DNA from: Escherichia coli
Lineage (GTDB): Bacteria; Pseudomonadota; Gammaproteobacteria; Enterobacterales; Enterobacteriaceae
DNA length: 64,000 nt
Assembly: GCF_003018235.1 (NCBI RefSeq)
Contig: NZ_CP027437.1
Reading direction: 5' to 3' (one strand)
Shown here: positions 9,564-33,375 of the stretch, in pieces
How positions within the stretch are numbered: position 1 is the first letter of the stretch
Layout of the letters: each line of letters starts with the position of its first letter
Made by a program: the position numbers and the translations under genes
The notes under the pieces: generated by a model
Databases searched by the model: none
The model's input: the letters and a program-made list of their open reading frames with translations, nothing else
What the model was told of the DNA's origin: nothing

Positions 9564-9648
9564 ATGGATGCATTTCAGATGATATTCACCTTGAGGTGCA
9601 TCCGCATAATCTGGATAGGAGCTGATCTCACGATCAGCTTCCTCCCAC

Positions 9649-9680
9649 ACCACCGTACGTACGGGGCCGTATACGGCGGT
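9649..9680 (-). other. Group II intron domain V
   Basis: ACCGCCGUAU-ACG-GCCC-CGU-AC-GUACGGUGGU folds as a 10-bp lower helix, a 2-nt 3' bulge, a 3-bp upper helix and a tetraloop. The CCGUAU...ACGUACGG consensus is present. A CGC triad replaces AGC, as in class C introns. Confidence 0.75.
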
Positions 9681-9704
9681 TCGGTTATGTTGATCGTCGC
9701 CTGC

Positions 9705-12068
<2,364 letters not shown>

Positions 12069-12073
12069 CCTTA
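12069..12073. repeat. IS100 target-site duplication, right copy (CCTTA)
   Basis: Identical pentamer abutting the IS right end. Confidence 0.85.
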
Positions 12074-12896
12074 TGAAGCTGTATCCAGGGAACTTGCGCG
12101 TTTCAGGGCGTGCTACAGCACTCTTCTTCGCGTTGACCTTCAGCTTCAGTTTATGGCTCAGCCAGTGCGTCAACCCCGCCATGATCCGGTTGCCTGCCCG
12201 TTCGCTTTTCACGTAGACATTACAGTCGTCTGCATACCGCACGAACTTCAGACCACGTTTCTCCAGTTCCTTGTCAAGGTCGTCAAGCAGCAGGTTCGAT
12301 AGCAGCGGCGACAGTGGGCCGCCCTGCGGCGTTCCTTCTGTCACCGGCCTTACCAGACCTGCGTCCATCACCCCTGCATTCAGGAACCTGCGGATAAGTG
12401 ACAACACCCGTTTATCCGATACTCGTTTCTCTATCCGGCTCATCAGCACATCGTGATTTACCCGGTCGAAGAACTTCTCCAGATTGAGGTCGACCACCCA
12501 GTGATACCCGGCCCCGATATGTTCCCGGGCCTGTATCACTGCCTGGTGGGCCGAACGACCGGGACGGAACCCGTAGCTGTTGTCGCTGAACGAGCTATCC
12601 CACTGTGCCTGCAATACCTGCATCATCGCCTGCTGGATGAAGCGATCCACCACCGTCGGGATGCCCAGCAGACGTTCGCCGCCGCCGGGCTTCGGTATGG
12701 ACACTCTTCTCACAGGAGATGGGCGGTATCTGCCGGACAGCAGTTGCGCTTTCAGCTCTGGCCAGTGGTGCCTCAGGTAGTCCGGCAGTTCGCTTACGCG
12801 CATACCATCGACTCCCGCTGCACCTTTGTTGGCTTTAACTCTTTTCAGGGCTTGCCTGAGATTGACTGGTTCACAAATGGCTTCCATCAGCCACAC
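12069..12896 (-). pseudogene. Group II intron reverse transcriptase, N-terminal (RT domains 0-7) part
   Basis: RT motifs are present: GAAGVDG, RRVSIPKPGGGERLLGIPTVVDRFIQQA, GFRPGRSAHQA, FVRYADDCNVY. Removing IS100 and one CCTTA copy joins ...[24 protein letters not shown] in frame, for about 410 aa in total. Confidence 0.85.
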
Positions 12897-13431
12897 TGTT
12901 GACGACGGACTTTATCTGTTCGTCGGTGCCTGCACGGTTTCAGCCCCCGGAAGGGCTGCGTTCGGGGCTTCACCCCGTTCCCCGGCCTCAGGGTCGCGAT
13001 GCGTTTTCTGCTGCATGACCGTTCAGAACCTCCGTTGATACTCGTCACTCATTACCGTTCGGGCCTTCGGGTGTCATGCCCTACTATGCCCTCTGCTGAC
13101 TCCTGTCCGCCGGTCAGCGCCCCTTACGGTACGCTCAGTTCTGGATACAGAACGACGGACAGGCCTCCCGGGGTAAGTTCAGCTGCCTTCACCACACACC
13201 TGTCCGATTTACCACCCCGGTTCTTGATGGTTATGGCCTTCGCAATTCTTTGCTTGCTCCGCCAACCGGGTAGGCCTCGTATCGGATTTCTGTTCGTCAG
13301 GTCATGGATTTGCTTCACGCTTCCTTCAGACCCCGCTTCACGACGACGCCCTTGCGCTTCGCTAGTCCTTCGCTACCATCAGGCTGGACAGGGGACTTTC
13401 ACCCCCGAGCTGCTGAACATGCCCGGCACAC

Positions 13432-13457
13432 AAAGAAAGCCCCTCCGGAGAGGGGCT
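13432..13457 (-). terminator. Rho-independent terminator forming the 5' exon of the group II intron
   Basis: Minus strand: AGCCCCTC-TCCG-GAGGGGCT followed by TTCTTT. The intron starts at the next base. Confidence 0.7.
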
Positions 13458-13484
13458 GGTATGCGCAATGTTCCATCATCTGCA

Positions 13485-13506
13485 TGGTGCCGGGTGCCTC
13501 CCGGTG
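13485..13506 (-). repeat. 22-nt GC-rich hairpin motif, late-operon copy
   Basis: The minus strand reads CACCGGGAGGCACCCGGCACCA, identical to plus strand 23989-24010. It contains CCGGG-AGGCA-CCCGG. Confidence 0.9.
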
Positions 13507-13785
13507 AGTCCGGCATCAGCATCCGAACCCGCAATATTGCCCAAATAAAGCTAAAGGATGATTGTGACCTGCTGATTTGCCCCTCCGCACAGGGGGATTC
13601 ACCATGCAGACATTTTCTTAGCAAAATCACTGCGTGCCAGGCAACTCCCAACTACATAAAATGTGGAGTTTGTGGCATTTATGCACATAACTCACAGGAA
13701 TTATCTTAAAAAAGCTGACAGGGCTTCCCCGGCAACGTAATACCATCATTCCCTGAAATGACATCCCCGTATTATCGACAGGCTC

Positions 13786-14665: not shown

Positions 14666-15418
14666 TTATCTTGTCACCTTTCTCAATTGTATCTCTGCAT
14701 ATGCTTCTTCCTGCCAGCACTTTGTAACCAGTTTATCAATGACATCTGCATATCCTTTGTACCACTGATAATCCGTCAGGTCTGGTACCAGATTCTGGAC
14801 ATGATGCCGCGCCAGTGTGGTTGGTAAACGGCTAAACCGGTTTCCATTGCAACGCCCACAAATCTTATAAACCGGCGTGCCATGAAGCCGGGTTCTTTTT
14901 TCATCCAGGACAATACCTTTACCCTTACACCCTCTGCACGCTGTGCTGACTTCTCCCTTACCATGGCAATGCTGACATAGTTTCTTCACCCACTCTTCCT
15001 TGATAACAGATTCCCCGCTTCTGGAGTGTTTCACCACTTCGCGCAATACATTATGAAATCCAGTACCAGCACAATGCTCACAGCGAGCCTTACTTGCCGC
15101 AGACCTGGAATAATCAGCAAAGGCAAAATTCACAAGGTAAGGGATAATCTGTAACCGGGTTTCTTCACTCAATTTATTCAATGTCGGGTTATCCAGTGCC
15201 ATCGCGTAATTGAGCAGACCTTCAATCGCAAACTGAGGATCCTGAACGCCAACTTTTGCCAGGAATAAGGCAAAACCAAGCGGTGCTTTCGACTGCACCA
15301 TCCCCTGCGCAGCCATTACATCCGTAATTGTTAAACCACCAGAGCCTGTCGCCGGTGCGTCATCGCTCAATTTTGGAGATTTTGGGGAGTAATATTTCGG
15401 TAAGGCTTCAAGGTTCAT
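14666..15418 (-). CDS. Late antiterminator Q
   Basis: 250 aa with Cys-cluster zinc motifs (CEHCAGTG, CQHCHGKG, CRGCKGKG, CGRCNG). It lies immediately upstream of pR'/tR'. The sequence resembles Q of EHEC lambdoid prophages as remembered. Confidence 0.85.
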   Translation of the reverse strand: MNLEALPKYYSPKSPKLSDDAPATGSGGLTITDVMAAQGMVQSKAPLGFALFLAKVGVQDPQFAIEGLLNYAMALDNPTLNKLSEETRLQIIPYLVNFAFADYSRSAASKARCEHCAGTGFHNVLREVVKHSRSGESVIKEEWVKKLCQHCHGKGEVSTACRGCKGKGIVLDEKRTRLHGTPVYKICGRCNGNRFSRLPTTLARHHVQNLVPDLTDYQWYKGYADVIDKLVTKCWQEEAYAEIQLRKVTR

Positions 15419-19661: not shown

Positions 19662-20490
19662 GACGATGCCCTCCGTTGATATTCAGGAGACGGTGAATAT
19701 GAAAATTAGCCTTATCCGCCAAACGAATACGTTCAGCCTGCAAGTTAAGAAGTGTTTCTACCAGAACCTGATGCGCCTGCGGATCCGAAAGAGTTACCTT
19801 GCGCAGAGCACGTAGTGCAGTTGTTACATAACTGAGTTTATGTAAGTCTTCATCATTCAGACGAGTGAGGGCTGGGACAGTAGCCATGATGGCAGCCTCC
19901 TTGATCGGTGAAATACTTCCACCACCGGAAACGCCAATTTCGCTGGTGGTGAACTGAACGGGGTTGGCGTAACCGGTGATCAAGGAAACCGGCGCATCTT
20001 TCGATGCCCCCGCCCAGCCCACCATAACTTTGATGTGAGCAAATGCGGACGATAAAAAAGACGCTGGCGCGTCATATATCGCCTTGATCAATTCCAGGAC
20101 GCCAATCCCGGCACCCGCTTTATAAGGTGCCTGAACAGTGTAACGTCCCGGAATGGCAGAATCAATGTGCTGGTGGTCCTTCACACTCAACAAAATCACG
20201 CCTGAATTTCCACAAAGGACTAAAGCACTCATGCGGGTAGTCTTTGCGAAGATAGATAACGCGCTGTGTTTCTGGCTCCCAACGAATAACATGGACATAA
20301 AGCCCTCTTCCGTCACGAAACCAGCGGTTAAGTTCCTGCACAACTCGCCCCCCACAGTCAGGTAAAGTTCTCTGTGGTTACTTACAGCCAGGTGATTTGG
20401 TAATCTGCATTCATGCCGTAACAACAGGTGTTCAGCGACGCTGACCACCAGCTGTTGCGACAAACGGTTATTTGCCGTTAAACTGTTCAT
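19654..20490 (-). CDS. Hypothetical 278-aa protein in the replication module
   Basis: A long ORF with a 4-nt overlap to the cII-like gene upstream and an 8-nt overlap to the next ORF. No family recognised. Confidence 0.55.
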   Translation of the reverse strand: MNSLTANNRLSQQLVVSVAEHLLLRHECRLPNHLAVSNHRELYLTVGGELCRNLTAGFVTEEGFMSMLFVGSQKHSALSIFAKTTRMSALVLCGNSGVILLSVKDHQHIDSAIPGRYTVQAPYKAGAGIGVLELIKAIYDAPASFLSSAFAHIKVMVGWAGASKDAPVSLITGYANPVQFTTSEIGVSGGGSISPIKEAAIMATVPALTRLNDEDLHKLSYVTTALRALRKVTLSDPQAHQVLVETLLNLQAERIRLADKANFHIHRLLNINGGHRHA

Positions 20491-21330: not shown

Positions 21331-21415
21331 TTAAGTTGTTACGAGATGCAAGAATACAACATTAACAACTTTTATCACAACTTTTAGGTGTTGGAAAGCT
21401 AAAACATAAAGTTGT
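21331..21415. promoter_or_regulatory. OR operator/promoter region
   Basis: CAAC/GTTG-based repeats. ACAACTTTTAGGTGTTG (21377-21393) and ACATAAAGTTGT (21404-21415) recur almost unchanged in the OL region (23097-23113 and 23057-23068). Confidence 0.65.
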
Positions 21416-21444: not shown

Positions 21445-22131
21445 GTGAAAACACTGGCAGAACGATTAAAGATAGGTAGAGAGAAAGCTGGCATGAGCCA
21501 AGCTCAACTAGCTGAAAAAATTGGACTTTCACAACAATCTGTAGCCAAAATAGAGAATGGAGAAACTCTACAACCGCGCAAAATTAAAGAAATTGCAAAA
21601 ATTTTAGGTGTATCACAAAAGTGGTTACAACTTGGTATTGAAGACAACGCATCCATACCTGATCTTGTTGTAAAAGAAGCAGAAAGCACCGCATTAGACC
21701 CCGATATTTTCGTAAACATTCCTGTTTTAGATGTCGAGTTATCGGCTGGTAACGGATGTCTGGCTGAAATAGTTGAATCAGCTATTGACTGGTTTCCGTT
21801 AAGAAGAGCAGATTTGAGAAAATCTGGCGTATGTGCATCTAATGCCAAGATCGTAAAAATCTGGGGGAACAGTTTATTACCGGTTCTCAATAATGGAGAT
21901 CTTGTTGCCGTTGATATTTCTCAAACCGTTCCTATTCGTGATGGCGATCTTTATGCCGTACGAGATGGTGTATTGCTAAGGGTTAAAATACTTATCAACT
22001 TACCTGACGGTGGCTTGATTCTTAGAAGCTTCAACAAAGATGAGTACCCAGATGAAATACTCACCTTTGAGGATAGACGAGCCAGAATTCATGTTATAGG
22101 TAGGGTATTCTGGTCATCGCGAACTTGGTAA
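21445..22131 (+). CDS. CI-type prophage repressor (XRE HTH plus S24 LexA-like peptidase)
   Basis: GTG start. HTH MSQAQLAEKIGLSQQSVAKIENGE. The C-terminal autoprotease pattern GNSLLPVLNNGDLVAVD ... LLRVK is present. Confidence 0.85.
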   Translation: MKTLAERLKIGREKAGMSQAQLAEKIGLSQQSVAKIENGETLQPRKIKEIAKILGVSQKWLQLGIEDNASIPDLVVKEAESTALDPDIFVNIPVLDVELSAGNGCLAEIVESAIDWFPLRRADLRKSGVCASNAKIVKIWGNSLLPVLNNGDLVAVDISQTVPIRDGDLYAVRDGVLLRVKILINLPDGGLILRSFNKDEYPDEILTFEDRRARIHVIGRVFWSSRTW

Positions 22132-23004
22132 TGCGTCGAAAAGCATTTCTTCAGAAATAATTTTAAGTTTTGCACCATTATCATCCCGATAAGATATAGC
22201 CTTTTCGATCTTCCTTCCGTGACTTGAGAATTTCCAATCACGGGAGGAAAGCGTCCCTATTACTAAAAAATCCAACTTTTGAGTAATTCCACTACTGATG
22301 TTCCCACCAGCATTTTTAATCAAATTTTCAACTACGGCTCTCTTTCCTGCAACAAAAGTGCCTGTAAGACAATAGGTTTTACCCTCTAACTCTATCGAAG
22401 CCCCTACATCAATAGGCAGCCTGGTCGCCAAACCATCCACCACCCCACTTTCCAAGTCACATCCAGTGAAGTCTACTAATGCCTTATGTAGAGTTAAACT
22501 CTCATCTTCAGTAATAACACCATCTTTAAGAATTTCCTTTACAAGTGCATAAAGGTTTTTTCCTGGGTAGTTGTTCCTCAAAGCTCCATTTTGCTCAAGC
22601 CACCAATTAAGATATCTTATTTCTTCTTGAGTTAAGTTTCGATCAGCAATTAATCATTTACATAGTCCATTAAGTAAATGGACATCTACATCTTTGGAGT
22701 AAAAATCAATTTCAGGGATATCAAGAATTTCTCTCTGTATTTGAAGAAGGCTATTTTTAAGGTCATCACGTTCTTCTGATGTGATTATTCCATCCGCAAG
22801 AATATCCGATACCCGTGCTGATAGACTTTTTATAACTCCATTATTGATAATCTGCTTTGCTTCAAGTAACCATGTATCTAAGTAAAGAACCTCCTCTTCA
22901 CGGACAACTCCATCTGCAATGATTCCATCAATGATGCTAATCAAGTTAGCAAATAACTTGTCCCGGTTCTGTGTGTAATTAAAAGCGTAAAGCGCGTCTT
23001 CCAT
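22114..23004 (-). pseudogene. TerB-like repeat plus BRCT-domain protein, interrupted by one in-frame TGA (22654-22656)
   Basis: ATG at 23004 with AGGAGG upstream. There are four copies of an (I/L)x(A/K)D(G/R)x(I/V/L)xxEE helix motif. The C-terminus GKTYCLTGTFVAGKRAVVENLIKNAGGNISSGITQKLDFLVIG...KLKIISEEMLFDAL follows the LigA-type BRCT pattern. ORFs 22654-23034 and 22114-22581 share one frame. Confidence 0.6.
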
Positions 23005-23056
23005 ACAACCTCCTTTTTTTGATAATCCTTGCACTCCTTGACTACACGTTCAAACT

Positions 23057-23113
23057 ACATAAAGTTGTTGACAACATTCAAAACAACAACCAGATTACAA
23101 CTTAAAGGTGTTG
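23057..23113 (+). promoter_or_regulatory. OL operators and candidate pL promoter
   Basis: Operator repeats shared with OR. TTGACA at 23068-23073, with AGATTA/GATTAC 18-19 nt downstream. Confidence 0.5.
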
Positions 23114-23186
23114 AGATGACGAACAGGCAGGACGCCCACGAAGTAGCCGTCTGGGGCATATGAAGTCCAGGATGATTCGTTAGCAA

Positions 23187-23210
23187 CAAAAAAGCGCCCT
23201 ATAGGACGCT
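23187..23210 (-). terminator. Rho-independent terminator of the DUF1311 gene
   Basis: Minus strand: AGCGTCC-TATA-GGGCGCT followed by TTTTTT, about 30 nt after the stop codon. Confidence 0.6.
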
Positions 23211-23211
23211 T

Positions 23212-23224
23212 CGCTCTTTAACAA
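23212..23224 (+). promoter_or_regulatory. boxA-like element in the pL transcript
   Basis: CGCTCTTTAACAA equals the boxA consensus as I recall it. It lies about 120 nt downstream of the candidate pL. Confidence 0.45.
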
Positions 23225-23237
23225 TCTGGATGACTTA

Positions 23238-23750
23238 TTACTCAGATTTGAACTTTGGTTCTGGCAAAAGAGGAGGAGTTGAGTCCTCGAATCGTAGCCA
23301 GTGCTCCCAGATATCGTGGGATTGTAATTCCAGAAGACCAATTTGACGTGATGCAACTGCAGTGCCAGCTATAGTTCCTCCTGCATAATCAACCTGGACG
23401 GACTTTGACGCTTTCTCAATTAATTCTGTCCAAGCTTCACTTTCCGCGTTAAAAGAAGCAGTTAATTCCTGCAGACGCTGTGGATCATCCTTGTTGTCTT
23501 GTTTCAAACGATTCAGGGCGGCCACCGAATACTTATTCTTAACCCAGCTAACCTGAGCTAACTGAACTCTCTGACAAGCGTCCATATCAGTAGTTGTTTC
23601 CTGAGGCATATCAAAGCAGGAAATAAAAAAAGTCTCAACACCATCATTTAGACTACTGCTCGGCTGGTTCAAAGCATCAGAAGCATTGGATGCTATCGGT
23701 ATTATCAGTGCTACCGACAGAATCAAACGTTTAACATAAATCGCTCCCAT
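23238..23750 (-). CDS. Secreted DUF1311 (LprI-like) protein, moron antisense to the pL transcript
   Basis: A signal peptide (LILSVALIIPIASNASDA), then the C...C...W...Y...Q..W pattern of DUF1311. The gene has its own terminator. Confidence 0.6.
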   Translation of the reverse strand: MGAIYVKRLILSVALIIPIASNASDALNQPSSSLNDGVETFFISCFDMPQETTTDMDACQRVQLAQVSWVKNKYSVAALNRLKQDNKDDPQRLQELTASFNAESEAWTELIEKASKSVQVDYAGGTIAGTAVASRQIGLLELQSHDIWEHWLRFEDSTPPLLPEPKFKSE

Positions 23751-23916
23751 TTAATTATCCCCTCTAAGAACAGAGTCATCCAGATTATCTGAATCCTTGT
23801 TGTTGGGGAATAACCAGGCCCACCTCGCCTGATGTGGCTAAAAGCAGGCACATAACAGCTAAGTATTTTCAACCAGAGAGAATCCTTAGCGTTGTGGTGA
23901 ATGCGGCTCAGCGCAC

Positions 23917-24010
23917 GCGGGCTAAGGTTGAGGCTGACAGTCGACCTTCTGTGGATACCCACCCGCCTGGTGTGCAACCTTCGCCAGGCACCGGGAGGCA
24001 CCCGGCACCA
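23917..24010 (+). ncRNA. GC-rich multi-hairpin RNA module in the pL leader (candidate cis-acting or small RNA)
   Basis: Hand-folded stems. 23924-23948: AAGGTTGA/TCGACCTT. 23951-23962: GTGG/CCAC. These two are closed by GCGG/CCGC at 23917-20/23963-66. 23966-23988: CCTGG/CCAGG. 23991-24005: CCGGG/CCCGG. There is no convincing ORF here. Confidence 0.4.
23989..24010 (+). repeat. 22-nt GC-rich hairpin motif, pL-leader copy
   Basis: CACCGGGAGGCACCCGGCACCA, identical to the minus strand of 13485-13506. Confidence 0.9.
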
Positions 24011-24035
24011 CAACTTTATGCTGTGTATAGTCCTG

Positions 24036-24082
24036 GCGGTACCAGTTTGTACCCTTGCTTCCGGCTGGTACCGCTCTTTTTA
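24036..24082 (+). terminator. Rho-independent terminator in the pL leader
   Basis: GCGGTACCAG ... CTGGTACCGC (10-bp stem, 19-nt loop) followed by TCTTTTT. The 3' arm and tail also read CGCTCTTTTTACAA, which is boxA-like. Confidence 0.55.
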
Positions 24083-24170
24083 CAAAACAGAGAAGAGCAT
24101 CACCGGACGACGGGCTCATAACCCAATCCACCCGGGCGGCTGCCACCGCAGGTGTTCTTCTCTGTTTTGT
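24082..24170 (+). repeat. Perfect 15-bp inverted repeat enclosing 59 nt
   Basis: ACAAAACAGAGAAGA (24082-24096) pairs with TCTTCTCTGTTTTGT (24156-24170). The interior has further CACC/GGTG, CGGG/CCCG and GCGG/CCGC pairings. Confidence 0.85.
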
Positions 24171-24218
24171 GGAGAAACCAACCGACCTTGCAGGGTCGAT
24201 ATGATGAGGAGCAGCAAA

Positions 24219-24581
24219 ATGGCTAGCGAACGCAGTACCAACGTGCAGGAATTTATCGTAGAACTGGACGGCGGCGTATTTGAAACTAAACTCGGCGCAG
24301 TTCTCAGTGAAGTCGCTTCCGGTGTGATGAACACGAAAAACAAAGGTAAAGTCTCGGTCAATCTGGACATCGAACCGTTTGATGAGAACCGTGTAAAAAT
24401 CAAACACAAACTCTCATATGTTCGCCCGACTAACCGCGGGAAAATTTCTGAAGAAGACACCACCGAAACGCCGATGTATGTCAATCGCGGTGGTCGCCTG
24501 ACTATTCTGCAGGAAGACCAGGGACAGTTACTGACTCTTGCCGGTGAACCTGACGGAAAACTCCGTGCAGCAGGTCGTTAA
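24219..24581 (+). CDS. YfdP-like early-left protein
   Basis: MASERSTNVQEFIVELDGGVFETKLGAVLSEV... GAGGAG lies 9 nt upstream. The 120-aa length matches K-12 CPS-53 YfdP as remembered. Confidence 0.6.
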   Translation: MASERSTNVQEFIVELDGGVFETKLGAVLSEVASGVMNTKNKGKVSVNLDIEPFDENRVKIKHKLSYVRPTNRGKISEEDTTETPMYVNRGGRLTILQEDQGQLLTLAGEPDGKLRAAGR

Positions 24582-33052: not shown

Positions 33053-33139
33053 GCGAAGGTGGCGGAATTGGTAGACGCGCTAGCTTCAGGTGTTAGTGTC
33101 CTTACGGACGTGGGGGTTCAAGTCCCCCCCCTCGCACCA
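33053..33139 (+). tRNA. leuQ: tRNA-Leu (CAG)
   Basis: 87 nt. GCGAAGGTGGCGGAATTGGTAGACGC...CTTCAGGTG...CACCA, with a long variable arm. Confidence 0.95.
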
Positions 33140-33167
33140 AAAACCACGTTGATATTGCTCGCACTGG

Positions 33168-33254
33168 GCGAAGGTGGCGGAATTGGTAGACGCGCTAGCT
33201 TCAGGTGTTAGTGTCCTTACGGACGTGGGGGTTCAAGTCCCCCCCCTCGCACCA
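33168..33254 (+). tRNA. leuP: tRNA-Leu (CAG)
   Basis: Identical 87-nt copy. Confidence 0.95.
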
Positions 33255-33288
33255 AACGAGGCGATATCAAAAAAAGTAAGATGACTGT

Positions 33289-33375
33289 GCGAAGGTGGCG
33301 GAATTGGTAGACGCGCTAGCTTCAGGTGTTAGTGTCCTTACGGACGTGGGGGTTCAAGTCCCCCCCCTCGCACCA
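33289..33375 (+). tRNA. leuV: tRNA-Leu (CAG)
   Basis: Identical 87-nt copy. Confidence 0.95.

Follow-up and report, generated by a model that had tools for sequence, protein, structure and literature searches.

A predicted small RNA of the STnc100/PasD family in the early-left leader of an Escherichia coli prophage

Introduction

How do the early-left (pL) transcripts of SfV/ST64B-type prophages without a recognisable N gene cross a leader of ~1.1 kb and a strong terminator? We consider this a fair question, and one raised by a locus on Escherichia coli contig NZ_CP027437.1 (assembly GCF_003018235.1; the 64,000-nt stretch analysed is hereafter the window, coordinates are positions in it, and the element under study lies on the plus strand unless marked (-)). 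A first-pass annotation of the window had described, between the candidate pL and the first early-left gene, a GC-rich cluster of hairpins followed by a terminator, and had put forward a protein-independent antiterminator RNA similar to the put RNAs of phage HK022, with a prophage-encoded Hfq-type small RNA (sRNA) ending at the terminator as the alternative. We find the hairpin element to be genuine, if for the most part unremarkable: its family of prophage sRNAs is already known, and its locus has a published representative. The parts of the leader to which the question of read-through points are a 64-nt RNA motif and a boxA sequence.

Results

The stretch 23800-24300 has a GC content of 0.55-0.575 (vs 0.32-0.47 in its flanks), as had been noted at first sight, and RNAfold (applied to 23861-24086) places in it five adjoining hairpins (about 23905-23923, 23924-23948, 23951-23962, 23965-23989 and 23991-24005) that are all enclosed by one 9-bp helix (GUUGUGGUG with CACCACAAC), forming a closed RNA domain of ~124 nt (23891-24014) with a multi-helix junction (Table 1). 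The four hairpins folded by hand in the first-pass annotation (23917-24010) are present as the last four of these five; the first hairpin and the closing helix had been missed. The minimum free energy of 23861-24086 is -86 kcal/mol (z = -2.55), an equally good fold being found in 1 of 200 shuffles; this single-sequence folding signal is modest, and the support for the fold from covariation across relatives is strong. Further downstream, GCGGUACCAG (24036-24045) pairs with CUGGUACCGC (24065-24074) and is followed by UCUUUUU to 24081, so that RNAfold upholds the intrinsic terminator with a 10-bp stem proposed for 24036-24082, which a consensus scanner missed because its loop measures 19 nt. No open reading frame (ORF) overlapping 23723-24218 has a Pfam match, in agreement with the earlier view that no convincing ORF surrounds the element, and in a prophage of 98.9% identity the Prokaryotic Genome Annotation Pipeline (PGAP) annotates this region as a hypothetical pseudogene with a frameshift.

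The Rfam model of STnc100 (RF02076) aligns over its full length (model positions 1-206) to 23861-24083(+) with 44.5 bits (E = 5e-8 in a local scan and 2.3e-6 in the whole-window scan). The window holds a second, canonical STnc100 copy in the late region, downstream of the Q gene and of two tRNA genes, which folds like the early one and whose closing helix differs from it by compensatory changes (CUGCAUGGUG/CACCAUGCAG in place of GUUGUGGUG/CACCACAAC). The reported 22-nt exact repeat in the late operon was recovered as well: the 22-mer CACCGGGAGGCACCCGGCACCA occurs exactly twice in the window (23989-24010(+) and 13485-13506(-)), none being expected in shuffles. With STnc100, PasD1, PasD2 and EcOnc13 (enterohaemorrhagic E. 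coli) the early copy shares the closing helix of the form xxxxUGGUG/CACCAyyyy, the AAU junction, the loop pattern of the first hairpin (H1), a hairpin B with a loop that complements a strand further upstream, the CCGGG-AGGCA-CCCGG hairpin in identical form, an unpaired linker that leads to an intrinsic terminator, a total length of ~170-210 nt and a prophage location. It differs from canonical STnc100 in the H1 stem and the middle arms, and lies in the pL leader upstream of yfdP, whereas canonical copies occupy the late region, between Q/stx and lysis or esterase genes. Sub-threshold matches to the model recur at the same leader position in ST64B and in Cronobacter phage phiES15, and in phages P1 and RCS47 within the ban operon, which is under C1 control. 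On these likenesses of sequence and predicted structure we regard 23890-24081(+) as a divergent member of the STnc100/PasD family, representing an early-operon subtype that is new here. PasB was also considered as the same element and was rejected, as it sits inside a structural-gene operon.

Relatives were collected by scanning viral contigs with the pattern TGGTGAAT-N70-100-GGCACCCGGCACC, which retrieved at least 120 loci; the matches listed comprise 79 distinct cores in 27 clusters (at 85% identity), and all family counts given in this text, whether out of 78 cores or contexts or out of 109 members, rest on the matches listed. An intrinsic terminator lies 20-40 nt past the core in 89 of the 109 distinct members (in the window, 20 nt past the closing helix), and the terminator hairpins are of 46 different types. 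Canonical clusters have a sigma-70 promoter (TTGACx-17-TAAxxT) 7-10 nt upstream of the closing helix, in contrast to the early-type copies (window, ST64B, phiES15 and P1), which are without an evident promoter of their own. In phage 933W the canonical copy is found directly downstream of stx2B, with the AsxR antisense RNA right after it. The linker between core and terminator (GCUGUGU(A/G)(U/A)AGUC(C/U)U) is kept in the window, ST64B and phiES15, the terminators of which are unrelated to one another; such conservation looks like that of an sRNA seed, and it is from this pattern that we infer a seed role. As to expression, STnc100 copies are transcribed in strain EDL933 (one is Northern-verified), PasD1 and PasD2 of enteropathogenic E. 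coli are RNAs of ~172 nt with Hfq-dependent stability and with partners recovered by sequencing of ligated RNA pairs (RIL-seq), and a 2026 preprint ties PasD to STnc100. Many phage contigs (L014, L017, L026, L030, L042, L060, L068, L077, L082) were seen to carry two same-strand STnc100-type cores ~140-1000 nt apart, which suggests that tandem duplication or repeated acquisition of such cores is common.

The structure of the element is conserved and functional. In an alignment of 29 diverse relatives the closing helix reaches a covariation score of 0.193 (vs 0.091 in shuffles; 0 of 500 shuffles attain 0.193) and is paired in 89% (slid controls 42-51%), with GC/AU/UA/CG exchanges at its outer pairs, one of which reads GC 15 times, AU 11 times and GU twice. 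The stem of H1 changes with the subfamily (CCCC/GGGG, GCG/CGC or CCUUU/AAAGG) and its loop pattern is retained, while hairpin B occurs with 49 distinct stems, in which contiguous pairs average 7.9 for a strand and its own partner vs 0.96 for partners taken from other clusters. The CCGGG-AGGCA-CCCGG hairpin is identical in all 29 aligned relatives and in every member collected, an invariance that is partly by construction, part of the hairpin being the search pattern. Furthermore, the strand directly after H1 (A) complements the hairpin B loop (A') by at least 6 bp in 70 of 78 cores, through 40 different A/A' pairs (e.g. AAGGUUG/CAACCUU in the window, AAGGCUGG/UCAGCCUU in phiES15, UGGUUAU/AUAACCA in P1 and CCAGUC/GACUGG in the common late types); pairing of this extent is found for 93% of combinations with the RNA's own partner vs 28% with the partners of other clusters, and it takes up nearly the whole loop (often 6/6 nt). 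Because enforcing A/A' as a nested helix costs 4-12 kcal/mol in comparison to the fold that keeps hairpin B, we favour a tertiary, pseudoknot-type contact over an alternative conformer. The stem covariation among homologues that the first-pass annotation had suggested looking for is thus present in the closing helix, hairpin B and A/A', the last being a covarying strand-to-loop pairing that is new here and was previously unmodelled in the family.

A published representative of the locus is sRNA-17 of E. coli K1 strain RS218, an RNA of 193 nt by 5'/3' rapid amplification of cDNA ends (RACE) that is visible on Northern blots, rises in stationary phase and has ArcA-P bound upstream (Front Microbiol 2020, PMC7719688); its authors reported no Rfam homologue, and ArcA control and a blood-survival phenotype were shown for the RS218 allele only (PMC7719688). 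Because the published full-length primers (CGTTGTGGTGAATGCGCAGGCTGATGCGCGAAA and the reverse complement of GTACACTTGCTTCCGGCTGGTACCGCTCTTTT) match phage mEp460 (L008 2854-3047), sRNA-17 is the mEp460-type allele of this locus. The window and the mEp460 allele share their ends (CGTTGTGGTG... and ...CTGGTACCGCTCTTTT): the first 16 nt of sRNA-17 (CGTTGTGGTGAATGCG) are found at 23890 and GGCTGGTACCGCTCTTTT ends at 24080, with yfdP downstream. In common are thus the position directly upstream of yfdP in the same prophage type, the 5' start, the 3' strand of the closing helix (CACCACAAC), a near-identical terminator and the length (193 vs ~191 nt), while the interior ~110 nt are unlike, being mEp460-type in RS218 and SfV/UTI89-type in the window. 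Whole-length identity to sRNA-17 was not found, BLAST against mEp460-type phages aligning only from the terminator onward (query 180-236); to the UTI89 allele the window allele is 98.9% identical. Moreover, the RACE 5' end of sRNA-17 agrees with where canonical clusters have their promoter, 7-10 nt ahead of the closing helix, and the link that these comparisons indicate between sRNA-17 and STnc100/PasD is new here.

Replacement of the sRNA-17 core by a chloramphenicol (Cm) cassette raised yfdP 96-fold, and yfdR also went up (PMC7719688). Judged from the primer design, the terminator was retained in this deletion. Since the terminator was kept and the cassette presumably reads towards yfdP (an orientation that we assume from pKD3), the rise of both genes is most simply a cis effect of the cassette rather than regulation; it shows the physical and transcriptional linkage of the sRNA-17 locus to yfdP. 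Caution is due over yfdP and yfdR as 'targets' of sRNA-17 because both are its immediate downstream neighbours.

An early-type STnc100-like core is also present in the ban operon of phage P1 (L003 3004-3160) and in RCS47 (L007 3004-3170), between the antisense plp/upl genes and tciA, and is unannotated in the detailed P1 record. It shares with the window copy GUUGCGGUG...CACCGCAAC, the H1 sequence GCGGCUAAGCGCACGC and a position right behind antisense morons in an early operon under repressor control, and has its own A/A' pair (UGGUUAU/AUAACCA). Unlike the window copy, the P1 copy has neither terminator nor promoter; within ~30 nt of its core comes a hairpin in which the Shine-Dalgarno sequence of tciA is masked. 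These putative terminator-less copies of the family in the P1 ban operon are new here.

The prophage is of the SfV/ST64B/CPS-53 kind, and its element is the SfV/UTI89-type allele. In the 98.9% identical prophage of ATCC 11775 the opposite strand carries the late genes and then a Q-type antiterminator, replication genes and a cro-like gene; next in order come a LexA-family cI-like repressor, an antisense hypothetical gene, the region of the element and then yfdP, yfdQ, yfdR ... integrase. Of 5426 complete E. coli genomes, 2808 contain a match to the 461-nt region of the element, and in 1625 of these it extends over 80% or more of the query; phages SfV, SfII, SfIV and ST64B, among others, also have a match, and the element is deleted in the CPS-53 remnant of E. 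coli K-12. The candidate pL proposed earlier is plausible: its operator-like repeats, ACAUAAAGUUGU and ACAACUU(A/U)(A/U)AGGUGUUG, recur in the cro/cI intergenic region (21404-21415 and 21377-21393), and after its transcript start comes a leader motif that ST64B and other phages likewise have behind pL.

Table 1. Positions of the early-leader element, its parts and related features in the window
Feature	Coordinates	Strand	Remarks
Predicted small RNA, ~191 nt	23890-24081	+	ends by homology to RACE-mapped sRNA-17
Closing helix (P1), 5' strand GUUGUGGUG	23891-23899	+	pairs with 24006-24014; covariation
Hairpin H1 (GCG...CGC)	23903-23918	+	loop pattern CU..GCG.A conserved; stem varies between subfamilies
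Segment A (AAGGUUG)	23924-23930	+	complement of hairpin B loop; A/A' covariation
Hairpin B (GCCUGGUG / CGCCAGGC)	23965-23989	+	loop UGCAACCUU holds A' = CAACCUU (23975-23981)
Hairpin CCGGG-AGGCA-CCCGG	23991-24005	+	inside the 22-mer common to the late copy
Closing helix (P1), 3' strand CACCACAAC	24006-24014	+	RNAfold, covariation
Single-stranded A/U-rich linker (UUUAUGCUGUGUAUAGUCCU)	24015-24034	+	candidate seed and Hfq-contact region
Rho-independent terminator	24035-24081	+	10-11 bp stem, 19-nt loop, UCUUUUU tail
Canonical STnc100 copy, late region	13426-13637	-	Rfam 134 bits, above gathering threshold; z = -3.5
Candidate pL with operator-like repeats	23068-23113	+	TTGACA at 23068-23073
Structured 64-nt RNA motif	23118-23181	+	helix P1 6 bp, 22-nt core GGCAGGACGCCCACGAAGUAGC, helix P2 5 bp with loop GGCRUAYGAA, AUGA junction
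Repressor	21445-22131	+	HTH and S24 peptidase domains
Antisense moron	23238-23750	-	weak LprI/DUF1311 match
Q gene	14666-15418	-	PF03589

Several further observations concern the surroundings of the element. A 37-nt block (CCACCUCGCCUGAUGUGGCUAAAAGCAGGCACAYAAC, 23820-23856(+)) marks the upstream mosaic boundary of the sRNA unit, is a candidate promoter or RNA, and recurs in phiES15 (L006 2898-2933) beside a different antisense moron; a sigma-54 promoter at 23835-23850 (TGGC-N9-GGCA) was rejected, its spacing fitting this allele and not the canonical copy or mEp460. Between the terminator and the yfdP start codon a hairpin (24086-24166(+), -37.7 kcal/mol, z = -5.9) is closed by ~17 pairs (24086-24102 with 24150-24166) and is conserved in ST64B, apparently with compensatory changes. 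The two antisense ORFs between the repressor gene and the candidate pL (22114-23034(-)), one with a BRCT domain (PF00533, E = 9e-6) and the other without a Pfam match, are missing in the ATCC 11775 relative, and we take them to be probable morons. Domains of a group II intron (RF02001, RF01998 and RF00029) span 9609-13347(-), starting ~80 nt past the canonical STnc100 copy's terminator, which suggests that an intron entered the late region right behind this terminator. In the early-right region the C4 antisense RNA and the Hfq-binding RNA isrK adjoin at 19942-20130(-), as a P1/P7 immI-type antirepressor control module, and the pair is also found in ST64B and mEp460. Elsewhere in the window (33053-33372(+)) three matches to the tRNA model, of 84 nt each, with identical scores (48.5 bits) and spacings of 115 and 121 nt, form a tandem array of the same or a near-identical tRNA gene.

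The leader motif just downstream of the candidate pL is a second structured RNA, also conserved in ST64B. A scan of viral contigs with its 22-nt core as pattern found at least 120 loci, with 101 distinct versions among the matches listed (on which the counts of occurrences and contexts below likewise rest); the carriers, temperate phages with a single copy each, include SfII, SfIV, SfV, mEp237, Salmonella phages SEN34 and SPN3UB, Klebsiella phages, Citrobacter phiNP, Yersinia YeP1-3 and Pectobacterium ZF40. Its position is constant, in that it lies 100-400 nt after the preceding co-oriented gene in every annotated case (a cI-like repressor in ZF40 and YeP1) and starts ~8-20 nt after a consensus promoter, while the first downstream genes are unrelated between phages. 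Across 24 aligned versions the first helix (P1) varies as CGAA/UUCG, CACC/GGUG and UCAUC/GAUGA, the second (P2) has at least 8 stem variants, 96% of cells are paired (slid controls 20-43%) and 10 of 11 pairs show compensatory changes, a result reached by 0 of 500 shuffles; RNAalifold recovers the same two helices. A covariance model built on the motif finds exactly one copy in the window (23114-23187, 85.5 bits; no second, 'R' copy even with filters off) and has no match in HK022, HK639, P1, phiES15 or mEp460. The motif has no Rfam match, and a literature search on its sequence gave nothing relevant; we report it as new. It is present, and unannotated, in 1403 of 5426 E. coli genomes, and in 24 of 97 occurrences an STnc100-type core follows 350-980 nt downstream.

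Past this motif, a consensus boxA (CGCUCUUUAACAA, 23212-23224(+)) is the sole exact match in the window and lies outside the hairpin element; no boxB-like pentaloop hairpin was identified. It stands directly after a hairpin (the bidirectional terminator of the antisense DUF1311 gene; hairpin and boxA together occupy 23191-23224) and just before the leader's antisense pass through DUF1311. Among 115 motif contexts, 17 have boxA again, with its offset unchanged and in each case together with the terminator of this moron.

Discussion

Taken together, these observations point to 23890-24081 being a prophage sRNA gene that also acts as a terminator/insulator, a reading to which we assign a probability of roughly 0.65. 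They favour what the first-pass annotation had held as its alternative, an Hfq-type prophage sRNA ending at the terminator, by way of the full-length STnc100 match, and the relatives speak for a discrete RNA: PasD1 and PasD2 are Hfq-dependent with RIL-seq partners, STnc100 is Northern-verified and sRNA-17 is a discrete 193-nt species. By analogy with PasD1 and PasD2, the window RNA would be stabilised by Hfq via the U-tail of its terminator and would base-pair with targets in trans, the linker being the likeliest part to do so, with the folded 5' domain as a possible stabilising or scaffolding module. The terminator would in addition act in cis, stopping immunity-region transcription before it enters yfdP-yfdQ-yfdR...int. 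Because this subtype has no good sigma-70 promoter directly upstream, the RNA may derive from pL transcripts.

Several points weigh against this interpretation. The score of the STnc100 match is 2.5 bits below the curated gathering threshold (GA 47), and no convincing sigma-70 promoter was found in 23751-23890 (no site of at least 9/12), given which autonomous expression of the window allele is putative and unproven. Hfq binding and trans targets are known for PasD1 and PasD2 and are putative for sRNA-17 and the window allele, while a search of the window for the complement of the linker gave nothing above chance. The UTI89 allele (CP000243.1) was listed as 'degenerative sRNA-17' and was not assayed in the sRNA-17 paper (PMC7719688), and the rise of yfdP in the deletion mutant, most simply a cassette effect, cannot count as sRNA regulation. 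Furthermore, the P1 and RCS47 copies, without promoter or terminator, sit in a 5' untranslated region (UTR), which shows that an mRNA can include the core domain, and a conserved 5' domain with loop-to-strand pairing is elaborate beyond the needs of an ordinary Hfq sRNA.

An elaborate domain of this kind could instead belong to a riboswitch-like attenuator or sensor, which would bind a host factor or small ligand and tune stopping at the terminator or, in P1, masking of the ribosome-binding site, the 'sRNA' being its off-state product; for the family at large, the STnc100/PasD/sRNA-17 core would then be a cis sensing or polymerase-modifying domain in which the pairing of A with the hairpin B loop decides termination, or translation of the next gene in P1. 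Such a role would suit a strongly conserved domain that is joined to many downstream elements (46 terminator hairpins in 109 members, and directly a Shine-Dalgarno-sequestering hairpin in P1), is co-oriented with the next long ORF in 74 of 78 contexts and, in its early-type copies, shows no evident promoter of its own; A/A', by using almost all of the hairpin B loop, could likewise be an alternative conformer. The energy cost of the nested A/A' fold speaks against such a switch, however, as do the self-contained promoter-to-terminator units that canonical members form within operons already read by Q-modified polymerase, the Hfq-dependent trans interactions of the PasD relatives and the failure to find, by inspection, any conserved alternative pairing of core or linker with the 5' halves of the terminators. 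We consider a cis-sensing role improbable; if it were true, hundreds of annotated 'prophage sRNAs' would be off-state products of a new class of regulatory RNA that gates early-left and late operons. A riboswitch-style antiterminator pairing with the terminator was rejected, no consistent complementarity being found across the 46 terminator types. A trans role would also be superfluous if the element were only a structural boundary, a nuclease-resistant fold with a terminator that insulates the early-left operon from moron and immunity transcription and marks a recombination joint. Mosaic joints do lie at the edges of the unit (23820, 23875 and 24034), copies typically stand just after morons (DUF1311 in the window, stx2B in 933W, plp/upl in P1), and yfdP is silent in the wild type and expressed after disruption of the region (PMC7719688). 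Yet an insulator needs the terminator alone, which leaves the invariant segments and the helices covarying across 27 clusters unexplained, and the PasD relatives have many Hfq-dependent partners; we allow this reading a small chance.

The put-like processive antiterminator, in which the nascent module would bind its own polymerase and, with no phage protein involved, carry it past 24081 and the terminators that follow, has as its setting a strong terminator between pL and the early-left genes and a leader in which no N-like ORF was found. A profile search of the ORFs overlapping 23723-24218 (two further plus-strand ORFs of 38-39 aa in 23113-23723, and the rest of the prophage, lay outside this search) gave no N-like Pfam match, consistent with the earlier remark on the missing N gene, and an N-like ORF as the antiterminator gene of the leader was rejected. 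The early-left leader and the late region of the phage each hold one of two related copies of the module, and copies are sense-oriented inside long operons, including the terminator-less ones of the P1 ban operon, as a put-like agent might be; like the put RNAs of HK022 and HK639, the module is a non-coding RNA in the early leader of an N-less lambdoid phage with terminators downstream. The resemblance goes no further in sequence or structure. HK022 putL/putR (located from ORF layout and alignment) and the HK639 putL-like RNA (taken from annotation) share CGAACGGCGCG...UAAACCAUGCGUCGG...CAGGA(U/A)GA..CGGCAAU in alignment, are ~70 nt long with two stem-loops and a short triplex, start at about +3 of the transcript and have no terminator of their own next to them, whereas the ~124-nt multi-helix junction of the module is without the CGAACGGCGCG, UAAACCAUGCGUCGG and CGGCAAU blocks and lies ~790 nt past the candidate pL. 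The put regions of HK022 and HK639 have no blocks in common with 23891-24014, and the STnc100 model finds no match in them at E up to 10. RNAs of the HK022 put type act in cis, with no need of phage proteins, to overcome terminators downstream of them, and mutations in the beta' zinc-binding domain block this action. In the STnc100 family the core is normally followed at once by a terminator where discrete RNAs build up in vivo, and many members have a constitutive-looking promoter of their own, because of which they would modify only their own short transcript. The idea first put forward for this locus thus fails on every testable feature of put, and we hold it to be very unlikely.

For antitermination as such, the 64-nt motif is a better candidate than the hairpin element, in that its place, the 5' end of the pL transcript, is that of put. 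The two are not homologous: a weak likeness (CGAAC.GGC, CAGGAUGA) was rejected because CGAAC in the motif is a helix strand that covaries to CACC or UCAUC, and in put a functional loop. A role in processive antitermination or against Rho is plausible for the motif, if tentative, and boxA may give the untranslated leader an anti-Rho protection by Nus factors.

Conclusions

The prophage sRNA reading, as favoured here, joins three separately named sRNAs (STnc100, PasD and sRNA-17) into one predicted family with a common architecture that includes the loop-to-strand pairing. For annotation, it gives an identity to a region that is present in about half of the complete E. coli genomes and has been left unannotated or called a frameshifted pseudogene.

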